Below are positions 2,912 through 27,686 of a stretch of 64,000 nt of DNA, one piece after another. Positions within the stretch are counted from its first letter, which is position 1, and each line of letters opens with the position of its first letter. A program made the translations under genes and the position numbers. This DNA comes from Opitutales bacterium. GTDB lineage: Bacteria; Verrucomicrobiota; Verrucomicrobiia; Opitutales; T3Sed10-336. A model generated the notes under the pieces. That model saw only the letters and a program-made list of their open reading frames with translations. It had not been told where the DNA came from and made no database searches. The DNA lies in NCBI GenBank assembly GCA_022565335.1, contig JAIUMY010000002.1, forward strand, positions 24,395-88,394. Reading direction: 5' to 3'.

Positions 2912-5029
2912 ATGGCACCGCGAAGAGCAATAGCATTTCCAGCCTCCCCCATACCACCTCATAGGCTTTCCCGCGATGAAACTGAATCTGGAAATAACGG
3001 GGCCGCCGAAAATCTTTCTCCGAACGAAGCCCCCCCCCCAAGTTCTCAAGCCCCCATGCATTTTTCGATGGAGACCCTTCAGTTTGCCATCCATGAGGAT
3101 TGGTCCATCTGTTCGTTTTCCCCCGAAGCCCGCAAACAATTTTATGCGGACTTGAATAGGGACCCCCCTCCTTCACGGTCAAAATGGAATTTGCGCGAGT
3201 TATTAGGACGCACCGAACCCGCTTGGCTTAGCGATTTACCGAAATCAGCAGGGACCCTTCTCCAAGGGGACCGTATTTTCCTACCCTGGGATGTTTCCCG
3301 TAAAGCCCATGGAATGGGATGGTCGGTTTATGCCCTGCCATGTGGCAGAGACCTTTTTAGCATAACCCTTACCCCCACCATGTGTCCAAGCGGCGAAGCC
3401 AAACTGGCGGAAAACTCACTCTCCTTCGATGGCGCGGGCATACAGGAAGTTGTGCGCGAACTCTTCCTGCGGACCCAACAGCAGGAAGCCCGCTTTCAGT
3501 TCTTCGTCCGGCACCTGCCGGGGGCTCATTTCAAGCAGGATACTTCGTATCGTTTTACCCTGATCAACTCGGCGCTGGAAGAATTACTGGGGAACGAACC
3601 GCTGCGGGAATTAAGCGAAGAGGGACAGTGGCTGGATTGGGTACATCCAAACGACCACGAAGAGCTTCTGCGGAATCTTAAACGCTGTAAATCAGCGAAC
3701 CTCCCCTCCTCCTGTCGCTTCCGCTTACTTCTTCCGGACGGTGACCGGGTGTTGCACCTGATGGAACTGCGTATTCCAGTGCGCGGAATTGACGGCTCCT
3801 TGAATGGATACGAAGGGCTTTGGCTGGACCTGACCCGTGAGGAGCTGGCCCAACAGCATTTGCAGCATTCCGCCTGGAAAGACAGTTTGGCACAAATCTC
3901 AGGAAGTTTGTCCCATGATTTCAACAATATGCTGACCGGCTTGGTGTCCCTGTCCGAACTGATGATGATGGATCTCAAGGAAACCGATGAACACTATGAA
4001 ATCGCCAGTCTCATCAAAAGCACCACCAATCAAGCCAAGGAACTCAGCGGTCGGATTATTTCCCTAAACCGGGAAGAGCGCGGACGTCCCCAAATGTGCA
4101 ATCTGGCCGAACTGGTTTCCGCGCAGTTGGATTTGATTCGGATCGTCCTCCCTAAGGACACAACCATCAAACTGGACATCCCGGAAGAGGAGTTCCCGGT
4201 GCGCATGGATATGGTGTCGCTGCGACGGATTCTGGTAAATTTCGCGACCAACGCCCGCGATGTCCTGGAATACAAGGGAACCGTAGAGCTTAAGATTCGT
4301 AAGGTTGATTTTTCCACCTACGATTGCTCCTGCCTGGTCTCAAACCATTGCCAACGCAAGGGGGAGGCAGTTGAGTTTGTATTTGCCGACAACGGTCCTG
4401 GCATTCCCCCTGAAATCATCAGCCGGATCTTCGGGGCCTATTTCTCCACCAAAGATTGCACAACCTCTTCAGGCTCTGGTTTGGGACTCTATTGTTTAAC
4501 TCAATTTGCCCGCGACAATCATTTCGATTACGGGGTCCGCACCCAAATGGGCGAAGGGACCGAAATGGTTTTGATCTTCCCCCTGCTTTGCGAAGATGAT
4601 GAGCCAACCGGGGAAAGCGAGGAAGAATTGAATCTGAACGGCTCCTTTGCCGAACCACCGGTGGCCCTCTACGGCGTCTCAAATTCAGCAACAAATGCGG
4701 TTCTTGCCGGCTTGCGGAGGCAGGGAATCGAAATTTGCGAACTCTCCGATGAAACCGATTTGAAAGATTGGGTGGAAAAGCAAACCGAAGTGCCACGAAC
4801 TCTGCTGATGGCCTTCGCCTATCATGATCACAAGAGAGCTCGCCGCACTTGCGAGTCGCTCGAACTCGACGCTCCCGGACTACAGGCTATTCTTTCCCTG
4901 CAGGGGTTGGATCCTGAACATTTCAGTGATTTGATCGGGGAAAAATTTGATTCCCTAATGATGGCAAACGCCAAACCCTCAGCCAATGTGAAAAAGATTG
5001 TGACCCACCTGAATCCCGCGGCCTCATGA
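2912..5029 (+). CDS. Soluble PAS-domain sensor histidine kinase with receiver-like C-terminal tail
   Basis: H-box SHDFNNMLTGL, N-box NFATNARDV, G1 DNGPGI, G2 GSGLGLY. A PAS-like segment lies upstream (WVHPNDHEELL...RFRLLLPDG). No hydrophobic TM span is seen. The true start may be an internal ATG (3056 or 3068). Confidence 0.8.
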   Translation: MAPRRAIAFPASPIPPHRLSRDETESGNNGAAENLSPNEAPPPSSQAPMHFSMETLQFAIHEDWSICSFSPEARKQFYADLNRDPPPSRSKWNLRELLGRTEPAWLSDLPKSAGTLLQGDRIFLPWDVSRKAHGMGWSVYALPCGRDLFSITLTPTMCPSGEAKLAENSLSFDGAGIQEVVRELFLRTQQQEARFQFFVRHLPGAHFKQDTSYRFTLINSALEELLGNEPLRELSEEGQWLDWVHPNDHEELLRNLKRCKSANLPSSCRFRLLLPDGDRVLHLMELRIPVRGIDGSLNGYEGLWLDLTREELAQQHLQHSAWKDSLAQISGSLSHDFNNMLTGLVSLSELMMMDLKETDEHYEIASLIKSTTNQAKELSGRIISLNREERGRPQMCNLAELVSAQLDLIRIVLPKDTTIKLDIPEEEFPVRMDMVSLRRILVNFATNARDVLEYKGTVELKIRKVDFSTYDCSCLVSNHCQRKGEAVEFVFADNGPGIPPEIISRIFGAYFSTKDCTTSSGSGLGLYCLTQFARDNHFDYGVRTQMGEGTEMVLIFPLLCEDDEPTGESEEELNLNGSFAEPPVALYGVSNSATNAVLAGLRRQGIEICELSDETDLKDWVEKQTEVPRTLLMAFAYHDHKRARRTCESLELDAPGLQAILSLQGLDPEHFSDLIGEKFDSLMMANAKPSANVKKIVTHLNPAAS

Positions 5030-22931: not shown

Positions 22932-23947
22932 ACCACGCCGATGACAGTACAATTCGATTTATAGCCAAGTCCGCGCAGGAAGCGGCGGCGATAGTCCGTG
23001 AACGCCTGGGCCCGGAAGGCCGGGTAATTTCTGTCGAACAAATCATGGGCAGTGGACTAAAACGCTTCGTCTCGGCTCCCCGCCTACAGATTGTTGCCAA
23101 GAAAGTCCCGCCGCCGGAGTTTTCATCAAAGACGAAAACCAGCGCCTCCGAACAAGCCGGGCCCGAAGCCCCCGCCCCCTTACCCAACCCCACGACAACT
23201 CGAGCAGGTCATCGGCGCACCCTTTCCTGCCGCTCGCTGCTGCTAAAAGCGGGGTTTTCCTCCAGGCTGATGGCCCGCCTCGAGGGCGCCGAACGCTGGC
23301 GTGAAATTGGTGAGATGGAAGCGGGGGAAGGCCTACCACAGGCCATTGCCTGGCTCCGGCAATATCGCGCTAAGCCAGAGCCTTTGGACGAGAATTCAAC
23401 AATAGCCTTTATCGGCTTCGCCGGGGCCGGCAAGACATCGGCATTACTTAAGTATTTGGCCCGCGAGCTTTTCTTATACAATCGCACCCCAAAAGTTTTG
23501 CAAATGGAGGTTGATAAGCCCCACATGGATAGCGGTCTTTCCCTTTATTGTGATGTTCTGGGGGTACCTTGCTTCGAAGACCCGAGCCAAATTAAAGGAA
23601 CGGGAGCATTGCTAATTGATGTGCCCGGTGTCCCACCTTCAGCAAAAAAGGAGCAGGCCAATTTAGCCGCCGCCCTCAAAGCGATCGGGACAGAGCATCG
23701 CGTCCTGGTGATGAATGCCGCCTACGAAAACCCGGTGTTGGAAAGACACTCCGAACTCGGTCTTGCCTTGGGAGCTACGCACCGGGTATACACCCATCTT
23801 GATGAGCTTGACAATGTCAGCAAGCTCTGGGTCGGCGTGCTCGACCCGAAGTGCCCCACCCTCTTTTTCTCCAATGGTCAAAATATGGTTGGCAATTTGG
23901 TCGAGGACAGCTTCGGCTTTCTAATAGAAAGGACCTTCCCAAGATGA
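22928..23947 (+). CDS. flhF: Flagellar SRP-type GTPase FlhF
   Basis: G1 FIGFAGAGKTS, G3 LLIDVPG, G4-like THLDE. Position after flhA and ATGA overlap with the flhA stop support the call. Confidence 0.85.
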   Translation: MNHADDSTIRFIAKSAQEAAAIVRERLGPEGRVISVEQIMGSGLKRFVSAPRLQIVAKKVPPPEFSSKTKTSASEQAGPEAPAPLPNPTTTRAGHRRTLSCRSLLLKAGFSSRLMARLEGAERWREIGEMEAGEGLPQAIAWLRQYRAKPEPLDENSTIAFIGFAGAGKTSALLKYLARELFLYNRTPKVLQMEVDKPHMDSGLSLYCDVLGVPCFEDPSQIKGTGALLIDVPGVPPSAKKEQANLAAALKAIGTEHRVLVMNAAYENPVLERHSELGLALGATHRVYTHLDELDNVSKLWVGVLDPKCPTLFFSNGQNMVGNLVEDSFGFLIERTFPR

Positions 23948-24189
23948 ACCGTTACTTTTTTATCGGAGGATTCCTCGGGTTTACACTGTTGTTCGCGATC
24001 TCCATTTACTCGGGAGCAAGCATCCATGTGGTCTTAAGAAACGCGATGGTCGGATGCCTCCTTTTCGCATTTTTTTTCCATTATTATATCAACCGTGTGG
24101 CGCAAATTTATCTGGAATCCCGCTTGCGCCTAATGGAAGAAGCACGGCAGCAAGAACGCGAAAGACAAAAGGAGGAACCAAAGTCATGA
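23944..24189 (+). CDS. 81-aa two-TM protein with charged C-terminal helix, uncharacterised (occupies the usual flhG slot)
   Basis: MNRYFFIGGFLGFTLLFAISIY...MVGCLLFAFFFHYYI...ESRLRLMEEARQQERERQKEEPKS. ATGA overlaps with the flhF stop and with the fliA start. The ORF-track upstream extension overlaps flhF. Confidence 0.6.
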   Translation: MNRYFFIGGFLGFTLLFAISIYSGASIHVVLRNAMVGCLLFAFFFHYYINRVAQIYLESRLRLMEEARQQERERQKEEPKS

Positions 24190-24977
24190 GCGGCGAAGCA
24201 ACAGCCAAACAGATCAGCGATGCCTATTCCAATGCCAAGCGTTCAGAACCAAAAGTGCAGGAGCGCATGAAGGCTTATGCCCTTAAATATTTACCGATCG
24301 TTAAAAGCGAAGTGCTGCGATTCAAAATGCGAGTTCCCAAACATATCGAATTCGAGGAATTACACGGGGTTGCCATATGCGGATTGATGCGCGCCTTCGA
24401 GCGCTACCAGGAAGGAGACGAACGCTTTGGGATCTATGTCCGGCAACGGGTTCGGGGCGCCATCCTCGACGAACTTCGCAGCCTCGACACCATGTCGCGG
24501 ACGATCCGCAAAAAAGCGCGGCGCTACGACGAAGCAATCCAAAAGGTCGAGCAGCGGGAGGGACGAATCGCCACGGAAGACGAGATTCGCAATGAACTGG
24601 GCCTCGGCCCCAAAGACTTCGATAACCTTCTGGACCAACTTCGGCCGGTCACTTTTTTCTCCTTGGACGATGTCAATAGCGAATCGGATTCCGCAGCCCT
24701 GGCCGAGCGAGTCGAGGATCAAAAAACCCCCTCTGCAGTGGAGTCTTTGGAATCACAGGAATTGTTTACCCTCATTCGAGAACGACTCGAACTCCTGCCG
24801 GAAAAACAAAAAAAGATTTTACATATGTATTATTTCAAAGACTTTAGACTTGCGGAAATCGCACAAGTCTTTAACATTTCGGAAAGTCGAGCTTGTCAAT
24901 TACATGTACAAGGGGTACGATTTTTAAAAGCTGCGCTCAGCAAACAAATGCGATCTGAAAACCCTACTCCTAGATAG
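24186..24977 (+). CDS. fliA: Flagellar sigma factor FliA (sigma-28 family)
   Basis: Sigma-70 regions 2-4 (YLPIVKSEVLRF..., RLAEIAQVFNISESRACQLHVQGVRFLK). Start chosen at the ATGA overlap (M45 of the ORF-track frame). Confidence 0.88.
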   Translation: MSGEATAKQISDAYSNAKRSEPKVQERMKAYALKYLPIVKSEVLRFKMRVPKHIEFEELHGVAICGLMRAFERYQEGDERFGIYVRQRVRGAILDELRSLDTMSRTIRKKARRYDEAIQKVEQREGRIATEDEIRNELGLGPKDFDNLLDQLRPVTFFSLDDVNSESDSAALAERVEDQKTPSAVESLESQELFTLIRERLELLPEKQKKILHMYYFKDFRLAEIAQVFNISESRACQLHVQGVRFLKAALSKQMRSENPTPR

Positions 24978-24979
24978 TT

Positions 24980-25846
24980 ATGATATTACTGATTGGATAT
25001 ATTATCGTAATTGGCTCCGTTGTGCTCGGTTTACATATTGGTGGCTCGAACATAATGGTCCTGGCTCACTTAAATGAGTTTGTTGTGGTTTTGGGAATTT
25101 GTTTTGGGGTCATGGTGATTGCCAGTCCATTCGCTGTACTGAAGGCCATTTTTGTTAAAACAATCGATGCTTTTAAGGGCGGTTCAATCAAAAAAGATGC
25201 CCATATGGAAGCACTGCAAATGCTTTATCAATTCTTCATGCTTGCGAGGAAAGATGGTTTACTTGCGTTGGAAGAGCATATTTCCGACATCAAACAAAGC
25301 TCCATTGCGAGTCAATACCCCACCTTCGTAAATAATGAGAACGCCGTAAACTTTCTGGTGGACTCACTCCGGCCCATTGTTGACGGCCGGATAAAACCTG
25401 AGGATATGCAGGAGTTGGTTGATGCCGAGATTCGCTCCCTTAGCGGAGAAAATGCCGAACCAATCCATGTCATGAGATTGGTCGGAGATTCATTTCCCGG
25501 CATCGGAATTTGCGCGGCGGTCCTCGGAATCATTCTAACCATGGGCAATATTGCCGAAGGCGCCGAAACCGTCGGCTACAAGGTCGCGGCCGCACTAACC
25601 GGAACCTTCCTGGGAGTGTACGGTGCCTATGGTTTCGTAAATCCACTGACCATAGTCATGGAGACCAACAATGGTTCCGAGGAACGCTACTATAAACTCC
25701 TCGGGCAGTCGATTGTTAGCTTTACCAACGGCATGGCACCGCTGATGGCCGTGGAAATCGGACGAAGAACCCTTCTACCCGGAGAACGCCCCGGCTCAGA
25801 CGAAATGGAAGAAACTCTGAAAAAAATAGGAAAGGGGGATAGTTAA
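24980..25846 (+). CDS. motA: Flagellar stator protein MotA
   Basis: 288 aa, MotA/TolQ/ExbB channel family (GDSFPGIGICAAVLGIILTMG..., TGTFLGVYGAYGFVNPL). Directly precedes motB. Confidence 0.9.
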   Translation: MILLIGYIIVIGSVVLGLHIGGSNIMVLAHLNEFVVVLGICFGVMVIASPFAVLKAIFVKTIDAFKGGSIKKDAHMEALQMLYQFFMLARKDGLLALEEHISDIKQSSIASQYPTFVNNENAVNFLVDSLRPIVDGRIKPEDMQELVDAEIRSLSGENAEPIHVMRLVGDSFPGIGICAAVLGIILTMGNIAEGAETVGYKVAAALTGTFLGVYGAYGFVNPLTIVMETNNGSEERYYKLLGQSIVSFTNGMAPLMAVEIGRRTLLPGERPGSDEMEETLKKIGKGDS

Positions 25847-25848
25847 TC

Positions 25849-26661
25849 ATGGCAGCTGGTGGTGGTGGCGCATGGAAGGTCGCGGCAGCCGACTTTTTTA
25901 CTGCTATGATGGCACTCTTCATGGTTTTGTGGATTTTAGGCTCCGAACAAGAGATGCTAGAACAATTACAGGAGTATTTCCGCAATCCTCCCAGCCCCTT
26001 CACCGAGCGGTCCGGCAAGTTCCCAGTGGAAATGGGGGATTTTTCCGGACGCAGCGCTACGGATGCGGAAGAGGCTTTTTTTGACCGGATTGACCCTATC
26101 ATTCTGAAAGGTATCGTTAATGAATTTAATCGAATTCTGCAAATGGAGGCAACACAGGATGAGGTTCCCCCAGTCGATATCACCATTACCTCCGATGGTC
26201 TTCGGGTCTCCCTTTTTGATCGCAAGGACACTGCCCTGTTTCAAGCCAACCATACCGAGCTAACCCCTTGGGCAAATTTCGTGACCCAAAATCTGGCTTG
26301 GTTGATATCCCGCTATCCTTTTGAAATAATTGTTGAAAGCTACACCTCGGAAACCCCTGCCGAAGAAAGTGACCTTATGCAGCCCGGCGATACCGCTTGG
26401 GAACTTTCCACCCGACGCGGCAACATTTTCCGCCAACGGTTGCAATTCTACGCCAATGAACAGTTGAATTTTCGTTCGGTCGTTGGCTACGGACCCGATT
26501 CTTCTTTTTCCGAACAAGAAATTGCCCGAGGAAAAAGCAACCAGCGGATCGTTTTGTCTCTTTCTCTCGCCAATCCCCAACAACTACCAGACTTTTCCGA
26601 GGTAGGCGATGACTTGCGGGGGCCCGAGATTACCCCGCCAGAGGAGCTAAACGAACAATGA
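25849..26661 (+). CDS. motB: Flagellar stator protein MotB
   Basis: N-terminus AWKVAAADFFTAMMALFMVLW carries the conserved Asp in the TM segment. C-terminal OmpA-like region (AWELSTRRGNIFRQ). Confidence 0.88.
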   Translation: MAAGGGGAWKVAAADFFTAMMALFMVLWILGSEQEMLEQLQEYFRNPPSPFTERSGKFPVEMGDFSGRSATDAEEAFFDRIDPIILKGIVNEFNRILQMEATQDEVPPVDITITSDGLRVSLFDRKDTALFQANHTELTPWANFVTQNLAWLISRYPFEIIVESYTSETPAEESDLMQPGDTAWELSTRRGNIFRQRLQFYANEQLNFRSVVGYGPDSSFSEQEIARGKSNQRIVLSLSLANPQQLPDFSEVGDDLRGPEITPPEELNEQ

Positions 26662-26909
26662 GCCAATCGACCGGTAAAAATTTCCCGAAGGAACAGAGTA
26701 ACCTTGCCAAACCCTCTGAGTTCCAACCATACGCCACCGCGCTAAAGATTCAGCAAGGTAAAAATTCAGCCAAATCCGGGGGCCCTGAAGAGGACTCAGG
26801 AAAGAAAAAACCTAAGGTTCAAGTCGTTGATGAAGATGGTATTGTGAAAAAAATACGGGTCACATGTTCGTGCGGAGAACTCATAGAAATCGATTGTTCA
26901 TATGATTAA
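26658..26909 (+). CDS. 83-aa hydrophilic protein with C-terminal CxC-x8-C motif, uncharacterised
   Basis: ATGA overlap with the motB stop. Disordered K/E/S/G-rich N-terminal part, then VVDEDGIVKKIRVTCSCGELIEIDCSYD. No family is recognised from memory. Confidence 0.5.
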   Translation: MSQSTGKNFPKEQSNLAKPSEFQPYATALKIQQGKNSAKSGGPEEDSGKKKPKVQVVDEDGIVKKIRVTCSCGELIEIDCSYD

Positions 26910-26918
26910 TTTTGTTTT

Positions 26919-26934
26919 TGGCACACTTTAGGCT
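26919..26934 (+). promoter_or_regulatory. Sigma-54 -24/-12 promoter of the flgF operon
   Basis: TGGCAC-ACTTT-AGGCT: the -24 hexamer is perfect and GG-N10-GC is kept. It fills the 36-nt gap between stop 26909 and the flgF ATG 26946. Confidence 0.6.
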
Positions 26935-26945
26935 GTGCTAAAAGC

Positions 26946-27686
26946 ATGGAAACTGGACTTGTAACGGGAAGCCGCCAAATGATGATGCTGGAAGCCTGGC
27001 AATCGTCAATCGCCGATAATTTAGCGAACGCATCCACCCCGGGCTTTCAGAAAACTTTATTTGCCGCCAGCGGAGCCCCTCAAGGCCCGCAATCCACTGT
27101 ATCCATTGGTACCGACGAACAAAAACAATTGATTTTGCCGGAAGGACGGGTCTCCCAATCTTTCAGCAACGGGCCCATACGTAACACCGGAAACCCCCAC
27201 GACTTCGCCATAAAAGACGGCGGCTTTTTCGCGCTCACCACTCCCACCGGCGAGCGCCTTTTCTCAAAAGACGGGGAATTTCGCGTCAACACGGATGGGG
27301 TTTTGGTAAACAAGATGGGCTATTCTGTCGATGTCGATGGGGCGGAGCTGAATATTGACTTACAGCAAGGGCCGGTCACCGTGACCCGTGATGGCAGTGT
27401 AAACCAAGAAGGTCAAAGCCTCGGTCGCATCTCCGCCTTTTCGTTCTCGCAACCAAACCAGTTGATTCGGGTGAGCGGCAGCTATTTTTCCGATCCGGGA
27501 AATGCCGGGCAAACGCAAATAGAAGAACCCACTATCCTCCAAGGTCATTTGATGGGCAGTTCAACCGAAGCGATCAAGGAAATGGTCAACATGATTCAAG
27601 TCTCACGAGCCTACGAAATGAGTCAGAAAGTCATCCAGGAAAATGACGAACGACTCAACCAGGCAATCCAAGCTTTCAGTGTATAG
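26946..27686 (+). CDS. flgF: Flagellar proximal rod protein FlgF
   Basis: IADNLANASTPGFQK near the N-terminus and MVNMIQVSRAYEMSQKVIQ near the C-terminus. Confidence 0.9.
   Translation: METGLVTGSRQMMMLEAWQSSIADNLANASTPGFQKTLFAASGAPQGPQSTVSIGTDEQKQLILPEGRVSQSFSNGPIRNTGNPHDFAIKDGGFFALTTPTGERLFSKDGEFRVNTDGVLVNKMGYSVDVDGAELNIDLQQGPVTVTRDGSVNQEGQSLGRISAFSFSQPNQLIRVSGSYFSDPGNAGQTQIEEPTILQGHLMGSSTEAIKEMVNMIQVSRAYEMSQKVIQENDERLNQAIQAFSV

Follow-up and report, generated by a model that had tools for sequence, protein, structure and literature searches.

Lineage-specific small accessory proteins, among them FlgX, SwrD, and the partners of FliL, have repeatedly been found to control stator recruitment or assembly checkpoints of the bacterial flagellum. 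Here we describe a small protein, X, encoded directly after the stator genes motA and motB in the flagellar gene cluster of an Opitutales bacterium, within a stretch of 64,000 nucleotides (nt) of contig JAIUMY010000002.1 (assembly GCA_022565335.1) that we call the window. X is the first described member of an unannotated small-protein family in flagellar clusters of the Opitutales and a few distant relatives. An earlier note on the window had drawn attention to the gene and assigned it to the stator transcript; our results place X in a wider setting.

Several described systems resemble X in part. Like X, the anti-sigma factor FlgM, an inhibitor of sigma-28 that leaves the cell through the hook-basal body, is small (about 80-100 amino acids (aa)), largely disordered, and a member of the flagellar regulon. 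In enteric bacteria it has a sigma-28-dependent promoter, as motA-motB-X does in the Opitutaceae, and in two distant loci (L098 and L099) X holds the anti-sigma position behind fliA. The functional part of FlgM is, however, its helical C-terminal half, whereas that of X is a Cys-containing beta-meander, and the two sequences do not match. FlgX, a tetrameric PilZ-family protein that stabilizes the stator in Campylobacter, and FlbD/SwrD are likewise small, cytoplasmic, and lineage-restricted, and are encoded with or near motAB. These proteins support stators, and the position of X after motB proposes the same kind of role; but X has neither RxxxR nor D/NxSxxG, its fold is different, and its linkage to motAB is lost outside the Opitutales.

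The sole sequence-level echo of X in the PDB is the N-terminal zinc knuckle of bL31, with a local match k-i-x-V-T-C-S-C-G-x-x-I-x at the strand-turn-strand, although at E=0.17-0.5 this likeness is not significant. In bL31 both knuckle Cys residues are zinc ligands. There the CxC is followed some 19 residues on by CxxC, which completes the four Cys ligands; X adds a single Cys to its knuckle and stops 3 residues after it; the genomic context and size of bL31 are also unrelated to those of X. Anti-sigma factors of the ZAS type (e.g., RsrA) share with X the idea of a small Cys/metal protein encoded directly downstream of a sigma factor, but their HxxxCxxC motif and helical anti-sigma domain are absent from X. 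X may function like FlgM or FlgX, yet it belongs to neither family.

Results

A new protein family specific to flagellar clusters

The X gene has the following features (positions are those of the window):

26658..26909, + strand: coding sequence of X, 83 codons for an 83-aa product, the coordinates including the stop codon (direct sequence and table of open reading frames (ORFs))
26658..26661, + strand: ATGA overlap, 4 nt, of the X start (ATG, 26658-26660) and the motB stop (TGA, 26659-26661)
26907-26909, + strand: TAA stop codon of X, read from the sequence
26641..26645, + strand: AGGAG, a possible ribosome-binding site inside the 3' end of motB, 12 nt before the X start, as judged from sequence only

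The overlap with the motB stop, reported in the earlier note, was reproduced exactly in both coordinates and translation. An identical protein has been deposited as 'hypothetical protein LAT55_00825 [Opitutales bacterium]', and a word-indexed homology search with the single protein recovered only X itself. Scanning reference genomes with MotB gave three Opitutales/Puniceicoccaceae loci whose MotB is just 36% identical to that of the window, and in each of these motB is directly followed by an ORF of 80-81 aa that shares the C-terminal motif. When 1.8 billion representatives were searched exhaustively with phmmer (E≤1e-3), 65 cluster representatives were returned, all of 45-136 aa; a profile search returned 202 family proteins of 45-151 aa; and a metagenome scan with the family profile, whose pattern CGExIE[IV][DH]C favors the Opitutales-type clade described below, returned 80 further loci. 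All homologues are unnamed or 'hypothetical', none contains a Pfam domain, and their named sources are limited to Opitutales, Opitutaceae, Puniceicoccaceae, Nibricoccus, and 'Verrucomicrobia'. Homologues are present in about 90 independent loci, and every one of these contexts sits within a flagellar cluster.

Codon comparisons gave a proportion of nonsynonymous differences (pN) of 0.056 and of synonymous differences (pS) of 0.73 for L001 versus L002, and a pN of 0.115 and pS of 0.60 for L007 versus L008. In both pairs pN is far below pS, which shows that X is under strong purifying selection. The small size of the gene (merely 83 codons), the lack of a database family, and the low-complexity N-terminal half might suggest a chance ORF or a non-functional remnant at the motB end. 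That reading is excluded by the conservation of the homologues, more than 200 of which retain the invariant residues, together with purifying selection; the position is also kept in about 90 loci and the fold prediction is confident, so that we give a chance ORF practically no weight. The earlier view of X as a real gene is thus upheld by the more than 200 homologues, their conserved position, and the low ratio of pN to pS.

Comparison with described families was uniformly negative. The single X protein had no Pfam family at E≤1, and searches of NCBIfam and of PDB sequences, whether run with X alone or with 108 members, gave nothing significant; FlbD (PF06289), PilZ, and FlgM were absent among the 25 most-matched Pfam families listed for the 108 members. 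Considered one at a time, FlgM (PF04316) had no profile match to X, whose predicted C-terminus is beta, not helical, and FlbD/SwrD (PF06289) had none either. PilZ also lacked a profile match, RxxxR is impossible, and a three-stranded sheet stands against a six-stranded barrel. Of the bL31-type zinc ribbon only the first knuckle was matched (E=0.17), and for ZAS anti-sigma factors the HxxxCxxC motif, His, and a Pfam match were all absent. The earlier note had recognized no known flagellar family in X, and the Pfam, NCBIfam, and PDB sequence searches agree in showing no significant match; its statement that X has no FlbD-like or PilZ-like motifs is borne out by the lack of Pfam matches and by the single Arg, which rules out RxxxR. 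Literature searches yielded nothing on the X protein or on Opitutales flagellar regulation. We are confident, close to certainty, that the X family is real, conserved, flagellum-specific, and new.

Sequence anatomy and predicted fold

The protein divides into two halves, the second of which contains the conserved Cys residues:

26658..26807, + strand: N-terminal half, aa 1-50, low-complexity and predicted disordered (pLDDT 50-69), with a weak helix at aa 25-35 and EFQPY at aa 21-25
26808..26906, + strand: C-terminal domain, aa 51-83, a predicted three-stranded antiparallel beta-meander (strands 53-59, 62-69, and 75-79; pLDDT >90)
26865..26876, + strand: invariant knuckle C70-S71-C72-G73 in the beta2-beta3 turn, with C, C, and G in 108/108 sequences
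26895..26903, + strand: C80-S81-Y82 at the end of beta3, with the third conserved Cys (C80, 107/108) and a conserved Tyr (Y82, 107/108)

Conservation was taken from the columns of a 108-sequence alignment, and the same alignment was fed to AlphaFold2. Conservation in the family is strongest in the C-terminal domain, with its knuckle V-T-C-S-C-G-E; T69, S71, E74, I76, E77, C80, and Y82 are each more than 90% conserved; the exception at C80 is the member P0037, which has Leu there. A second AlphaFold model, of an Opitutaceae member, showed the same beta-meander with pLDDT >90. The models reproduce the disordered N-terminal half and compact C-terminus described earlier, pLDDT being 50-69 in the former and >90 in the last ~30 residues, and a Foldseek comparison with the PDB, a check that the earlier note had suggested, gave nothing significant.

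We define the family by a C-terminal [VI]-x-C-x-C-G-[ED]-x-[IVTL]-x-[ILV]-x-C-x-Y after two beta-strands, in a protein of 45-151 aa encoded in a flagellar cluster. The window protein carries this motif as VTCSCGELIEIDCSY and scores 83.6 bits against the family profile. The Cys motif had previously been written as CxC-x8-C; it is indeed the conserved core, but the gap between C72 and C80 is 7 residues (G-E-L-I-E-I-D), so that the spacing is CxC-x7-C.

Three short strands are unlikely to be stable alone, and an invariant CxCG turn with a third Cys would be the signature of a structural metal site. It is reasonably probable, judging from this pattern, that the Cys motif binds a metal, most simply Zn. 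With three thiolates at the putative site, the fourth ligand would come from Glu/Asp or His, from a second copy of X, or from a partner. The window protein has one Arg and no His; in 9 of the 108 sequences D79 is replaced by His, an exchange that seems typical of metal ligands. We considered the Cys in region 4.2 of FliA (ESRxCQxH) as the fourth ligand and rejected it; 52 of 56 loci have this Cys, whereas L011, L014, L018, and L019, which also bear X, have Ser instead. This Cys, in ESR[IAV]CQ[IL]H of the recognition helix (about 24880-24905 in the window), is a feature of the clade and is not strictly tied to X; enteric FliA also has Ser at this position.

Disorder or low confidence (pLDDT about 50-55, with one weak helix) is predicted for the N-terminal half, which is lineage-specific and has short conserved motifs. 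Most Opitutales members begin with MK[PS]FLxG[RK]. The window subgroup begins MSQ... and shares with other subgroups a hydrophobic-x-P-hydrophobic motif (EFQPY), which the distant L011 type carries as GFEPF; the L/F-x-P column is conserved across the family. The sequence of X shows neither a signal peptide nor a membrane segment. The N-terminus Met-Lys-Pro/Ser-Phe-Leu-x-Gly-Arg-x-x-hydrophobic (e.g., L007 5001-5033) resembles 'N-motif 2' of ClpX substrates, which reads Met-basic-three hydrophobics-X5-hydrophobic. If this likeness is true, ClpXP proteolysis could set X levels.

Genomic context in the Opitutales

Neighboring genes were annotated with phmmer. Of the 89 distinct loci, 81 offer 400 nt or more of sequence ahead of the C-terminal domain. 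motB lies directly upstream of X in 79 of the 81. The earlier note had named a lack of conservation next to motB in relatives as grounds for giving up its proposal, and this count removes those grounds. The exact -4 (ATGA) spacing recurs in 48 of the 79 motB-linked loci, and flgF lies downstream of X in 40 of the 60 loci with downstream sequence. The 79 motB-linked loci all fall in a single clade, the Opitutales type (fliA-motA-motB-X), and eight contigs share the fixed order flhA-flhF-(small membrane protein)-fliA-motA-motB-X-flgF-flgG-flgA-flgH-flgI-flgJ-flgN-flgK. The neighbors of X in the window are:

24186..24977, + strand: fliA, encoding sigma-28 (TIGR02479 FliA_WhiG, 196 bits, above cutoff); its stop lies 2 nt before the motA start
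24980..25846, + strand: motA, 288 aa, with MotA_N and MotA_ExbB domains (TIGR03818, E=5.9e-82)
25849..26661, + strand: motB, 270 aa, with MotB_plug and OmpA domains (NF006548 MotB, E=8.5e-30)
26919..26934, + strand: sigma-54-like promoter TGGCAC-N5-AGGCT before flgF, beginning 9 nt after the X stop
26946..27686, + strand: flgF, first gene of the next unit (TIGR02490, E=8.5e-42)

The spacings are 2 nt for fliA/motA, 2 nt for motA/motB, and -4 nt for motB/X, and such tight gaps indicate that the four genes form one unit. The fliA ORF is open from 24054, where it overlaps the ORF of the preceding small membrane protein; the ATG at 24186 (MSGEATAKQ...) is likely the real start, and the FliA/WhiG profile match begins there.

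The end of the unit is marked by the sigma-54-like promoter. As the earlier note had it, X ends 9 nt before this promoter, TGGCAC beginning at 26919 and the stop codon occupying 26907-26909. The element TGGCAY-N5-xxTGCT (TGGCAT-N5-xxTGCT or CCGCT) is found 20-35 nt before flgF in six loci besides the window:

L007, 6399: sigma-54-like site
L008, 5462: sigma-54-like site
L009, 5556: sigma-54-like site
L012, 6351: sigma-54-like site
L013, 6922: sigma-54-like site
L017, 5394: sigma-54-like site

Because this conserved promoter starts the flgF unit, X closes a transcription unit, in keeping with its earlier assignment to the stator transcript; the fliA-motA-motB unit ends with X as its final cistron, and the sigma-54-like promoter opens the next. 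On the same sequence evidence, the flgF-flgG-flgA-flgH-flgI rod/ring operon appears to be RpoN-dependent in the Opitutales. There is no terminator-like site after X in the window.

In three Opitutaceae loci a sigma-28-type promoter, CTAAAG-N15-GCCGTTAG, lies before motA:

L007, about 3185-3215: sigma-28-type site in the fliA-motA intergenic region
L008, about 3185-3215: sigma-28-type site in the fliA-motA intergenic region
L013, about 4180-4210: sigma-28-type site in the fliA-motA intergenic region

Since such a promoter precedes motA there, motA-motB-X would be a late operon in the Opitutaceae. The strict sigma-28 promoter pattern had no match in the window, where the fliA-motA spacer is absent.

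A natural MotB-X fusion, which would put X in the periplasm, seemed to be present as P0040 (L017 3725-5390); it was rejected since that long-read assembly is ridden with frameshifts and both flhA and motB are fragmented in it. The long ORFs that extend over both motB and X in L009 and L010 reflect out-of-frame overlap in GC-rich DNA. Frameshift-rich long-read assemblies (L017, L012, and L014) split flhA, motB, and flgG, and give rise to the seemingly in-frame protein of a MotB tail and X in the public protein collection. Elsewhere in the window, flgJ encodes a rod-binding domain only (117 aa) and is followed directly by flgN and then flgK. No recognizable flgM or flhG (encoding a MinD-like ATPase) was found in the window cluster (5300-34800).

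Distant architectures

Four loci outside the Opitutales type arrange X differently:

L011: flhA-flhG-small membrane protein-fliA-92-aa protein-X-coiled-coil lipoprotein-second lipoprotein, then an opposite-strand FlgM-like gene, fliK, flgD, and flgE
L015: the L011 order minus fliA; the FlgM-like gene has a weak PF04316 match
L098: small membrane protein-fliA-X-lipoprotein; X and the fliA stop overlap by 8 nt
L099: flhA-fliA-X-coiled-coil lipoprotein-second lipoprotein-fliL-fliM; the fliA-X gap is 68 nt

FlhA of L011 and L015 is ~40% identical to that of the window, compared with 54% within the Opitutales, which makes these distant lineages. The sigma factors of L098 and L099 score best as FliA/WhiG. 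None of the four loci has motAB within 5-6 kb of X; X comes straight after fliA, after fliA and one small gene, or after flhG, and lipoprotein genes come next. Over the five architectures, then, the recurring neighbors are fliA in 4/5 (directly adjacent in 2) and two lipoproteins in 4/5, motAB being confined to the Opitutales type. The association of X is accordingly broader with the fliA operon, or late module, than with MotB; the motB link is specific to one lineage, and what the contexts of X have in common is the fliA operon. The inference that X is a stator component thus holds in part. X is on the stator transcript in the Opitutales, but this link is confined to one clade and the four distant architectures lack motAB. 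ATGA overlaps alone do not show physical partnership, because they are common in compact operons.

The lipoproteins beside X in all four loci carry lipobox signal peptides, and in L011 X overlaps the start of the downstream lipoprotein gene by 4 nt. Outside the Opitutales their genes form a conserved pair downstream of X, with these coordinates:

L011, 6408-7651: lipoprotein
L015, 5423-6549: lipoprotein
L099, 2778-4228: lipoprotein
L098, 1412-2032: lipoprotein

The first lipoprotein ends in a C-terminal coiled coil. The lipoproteins that adjoin X in these lineages matched no family, the second one being only weakly CsgG/LptE-like. The pair may be periplasmic motor components.

L011 and L015 also carry flhG and the FlgM-like gene. 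Just before X, both encode a small basic, disordered protein that ends in DG-x(3-5)-ID-[LI]-x-[VL] (L011 5707-5985; L015 5045-5224). This end recalls the first two strands of the X domain, and the protein may be a degenerate, Cys-less paralogue of X.

In 4/5 architectures fliA is immediately preceded by a gene for a small (~80-120 aa) membrane protein with two helices; in L015 this gene precedes the small gene upstream of X. It has no family match and is another uncharacterized conserved member of this flagellar module:

Window, 23944-24189, + strand: two-helix membrane protein gene
L007, 1634-1903: same gene
L009, 1768-2130: same gene
L011, 4679-4948: same gene
L015, 4750-4995: same gene
L098, 166-405: same gene

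Discussion

The genomic contexts suggest that X might be a small metal-stabilized protein that regulates the sigma-28 late module or serves it as an adaptor. A metal at the Cys knuckle would stabilize a mini-domain too small to fold alone; the mini-domain would dock on one partner, while the flexible N-terminal half would reach another. X might bind sigma-28 (FliA) itself, in an anti-sigma-like or sigma-stabilizing manner. It would be produced along with sigma-28 and, in the Opitutaceae, from a sigma-28-type promoter, which could provide feedback. Supporting this possibility, the canonical anti-sigma position is directly 3' of the sigma gene, with translational coupling between the two, and the fliA-X arrangement recurs in the Opitutales type (via motAB), L098, L099, and L011, i.e., in 4/5 architectures. 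FlgM (PF04316) had no recognizable match among 57 small ORFs in a Pfam scan of the 64-kb window, and in the Opitutales-type loci examined a local FlgM-like profile found no ORF at all, with nothing in the slot ahead of flgN. With the FlgM-like proteins of L011 and L015 as queries (E≤0.01), three proteins were recovered, namely both queries and one close relative. Several observations weigh against a sigma-28 role. L011 and L015 carry both X and, a few genes off, a FlgM-like gene, so that X is not simply a FlgM substitute there; the L015 protein has a weak PF04316 match, and its L011 homologue has no Pfam match. FlgM may also exist elsewhere in Opitutales genomes, the search having covered 64 kb of one. 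The conserved domain of X is a beta mini-domain, whereas FlgM and ZAS factors bind sigma through helices; X has neither His nor HxxxCxxC; and its metal site is predicted from three conserved Cys residues only. In L015 no fliA adjoins X, and in the Opitutales clade two stator genes separate fliA from X, which is coupled to motB. The evidence for sigma-28 or late-module regulation, rather than stator function, as the job of X is positional, and we put this forward tentatively, as a possibility short of an even chance.

A stator accessory is only slightly less probable in our estimate. X would then be a cytoplasmic partner of MotA5B2, held in fixed ratio to MotB by translational coupling, that stabilizes, chaperones, or regulates stator units, analogous to Campylobacter FlgX or spirochaete/Bacillus FlbD/SwrD though unrelated to them by descent. 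motAB sit upstream of fliL-fliM in many spirochaete and Firmicute clusters, and in L099 it is the block of X and two lipoproteins that lies directly upstream of fliL-fliM. The presence of motB upstream in 79/81 loci with the exact ATGA in 48/79, the apparently separate sigma-28-type unit motA-motB-X in the Opitutaceae, and the conserved sigma-54-like promoter that parts X from flgF all point the same way, as does the precedent of small lineage-specific cytoplasmic stator partners such as FlgX (PMC6686046, PMC11725899). The 79 motB-linked loci are, however, one clade and so amount to about one evolutionary observation, in a scan whose pattern favors that clade; four distant architectures have no motAB within 5-6 kb; the fliA/motA and motA/motB gaps of 2 nt are equally tight, so the overlap is not specific to a partnership; and FlbD and PilZ have no Pfam matches to X. 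Less probable again, and in our view doubtful, is that X is a substrate of flagellar type III export, with the disordered N-terminal half as export signal, and acts in the periplasm with the periplasmic domain of MotB or with the lipoproteins, its Cys domain metal-bound or disulfide-bonded there. Flagellar export substrates typically have a disordered stretch ahead of a small folded domain, and X has ~50 disordered residues and then such a domain; its immediate neighbors encode envelope proteins in 5/5 architectures (MotB or lipobox lipoproteins), with the 4-nt overlap onto the lipoprotein start in L011. Yet no export signal is recognizable from the sequence, the conserved octapeptide MK[PS]FLxG[RK] is unlike the degenerate known signals, there is no candidate chaperone gene, and the MotB-X fusion P0040 is a frameshift artefact. 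The remaining probability goes to an unanticipated flagellar role. With low confidence, we rank a sigma-28 partner first and a stator accessory close behind.

A more specific proposal, which we regard as speculative and rather unlikely as it stands, is that X regulates the late flagellar program in a new, metal-dependent way, possibly by sensing zinc or redox state. It would be either a non-FlgM anti-sigma-28 factor that stands in for FlgM in the Opitutales or a thiol/metal switch that ties MotAB activity to the metal or redox state of the cell.

What is new here is the X family; what is known is the flagellar system to which it belongs. The work defines a conserved unannotated family with a diagnostic motif, a confident mini-domain model, and a precise genomic address, and X merits a family model that would end its annotation as 'hypothetical protein'. 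Flagella outside the Proteobacteria, Firmicutes, and spirochaetes have barely been studied. Soils, freshwater, and termite guts harbor abundant Opitutales and related uncultured lineages, and motile representatives are available in culture. Control of sigma-28 by X would show how the hook-completion checkpoint is enforced in a clade whose flagellar cluster has no recognizable FlgM; action of X on the stator would bring a metal-binding element into motor regulation. Were X a metal-dependent anti-sigma-28 factor or a metal/redox switch of the motor, its mechanism would be one undescribed in any flagellar system.

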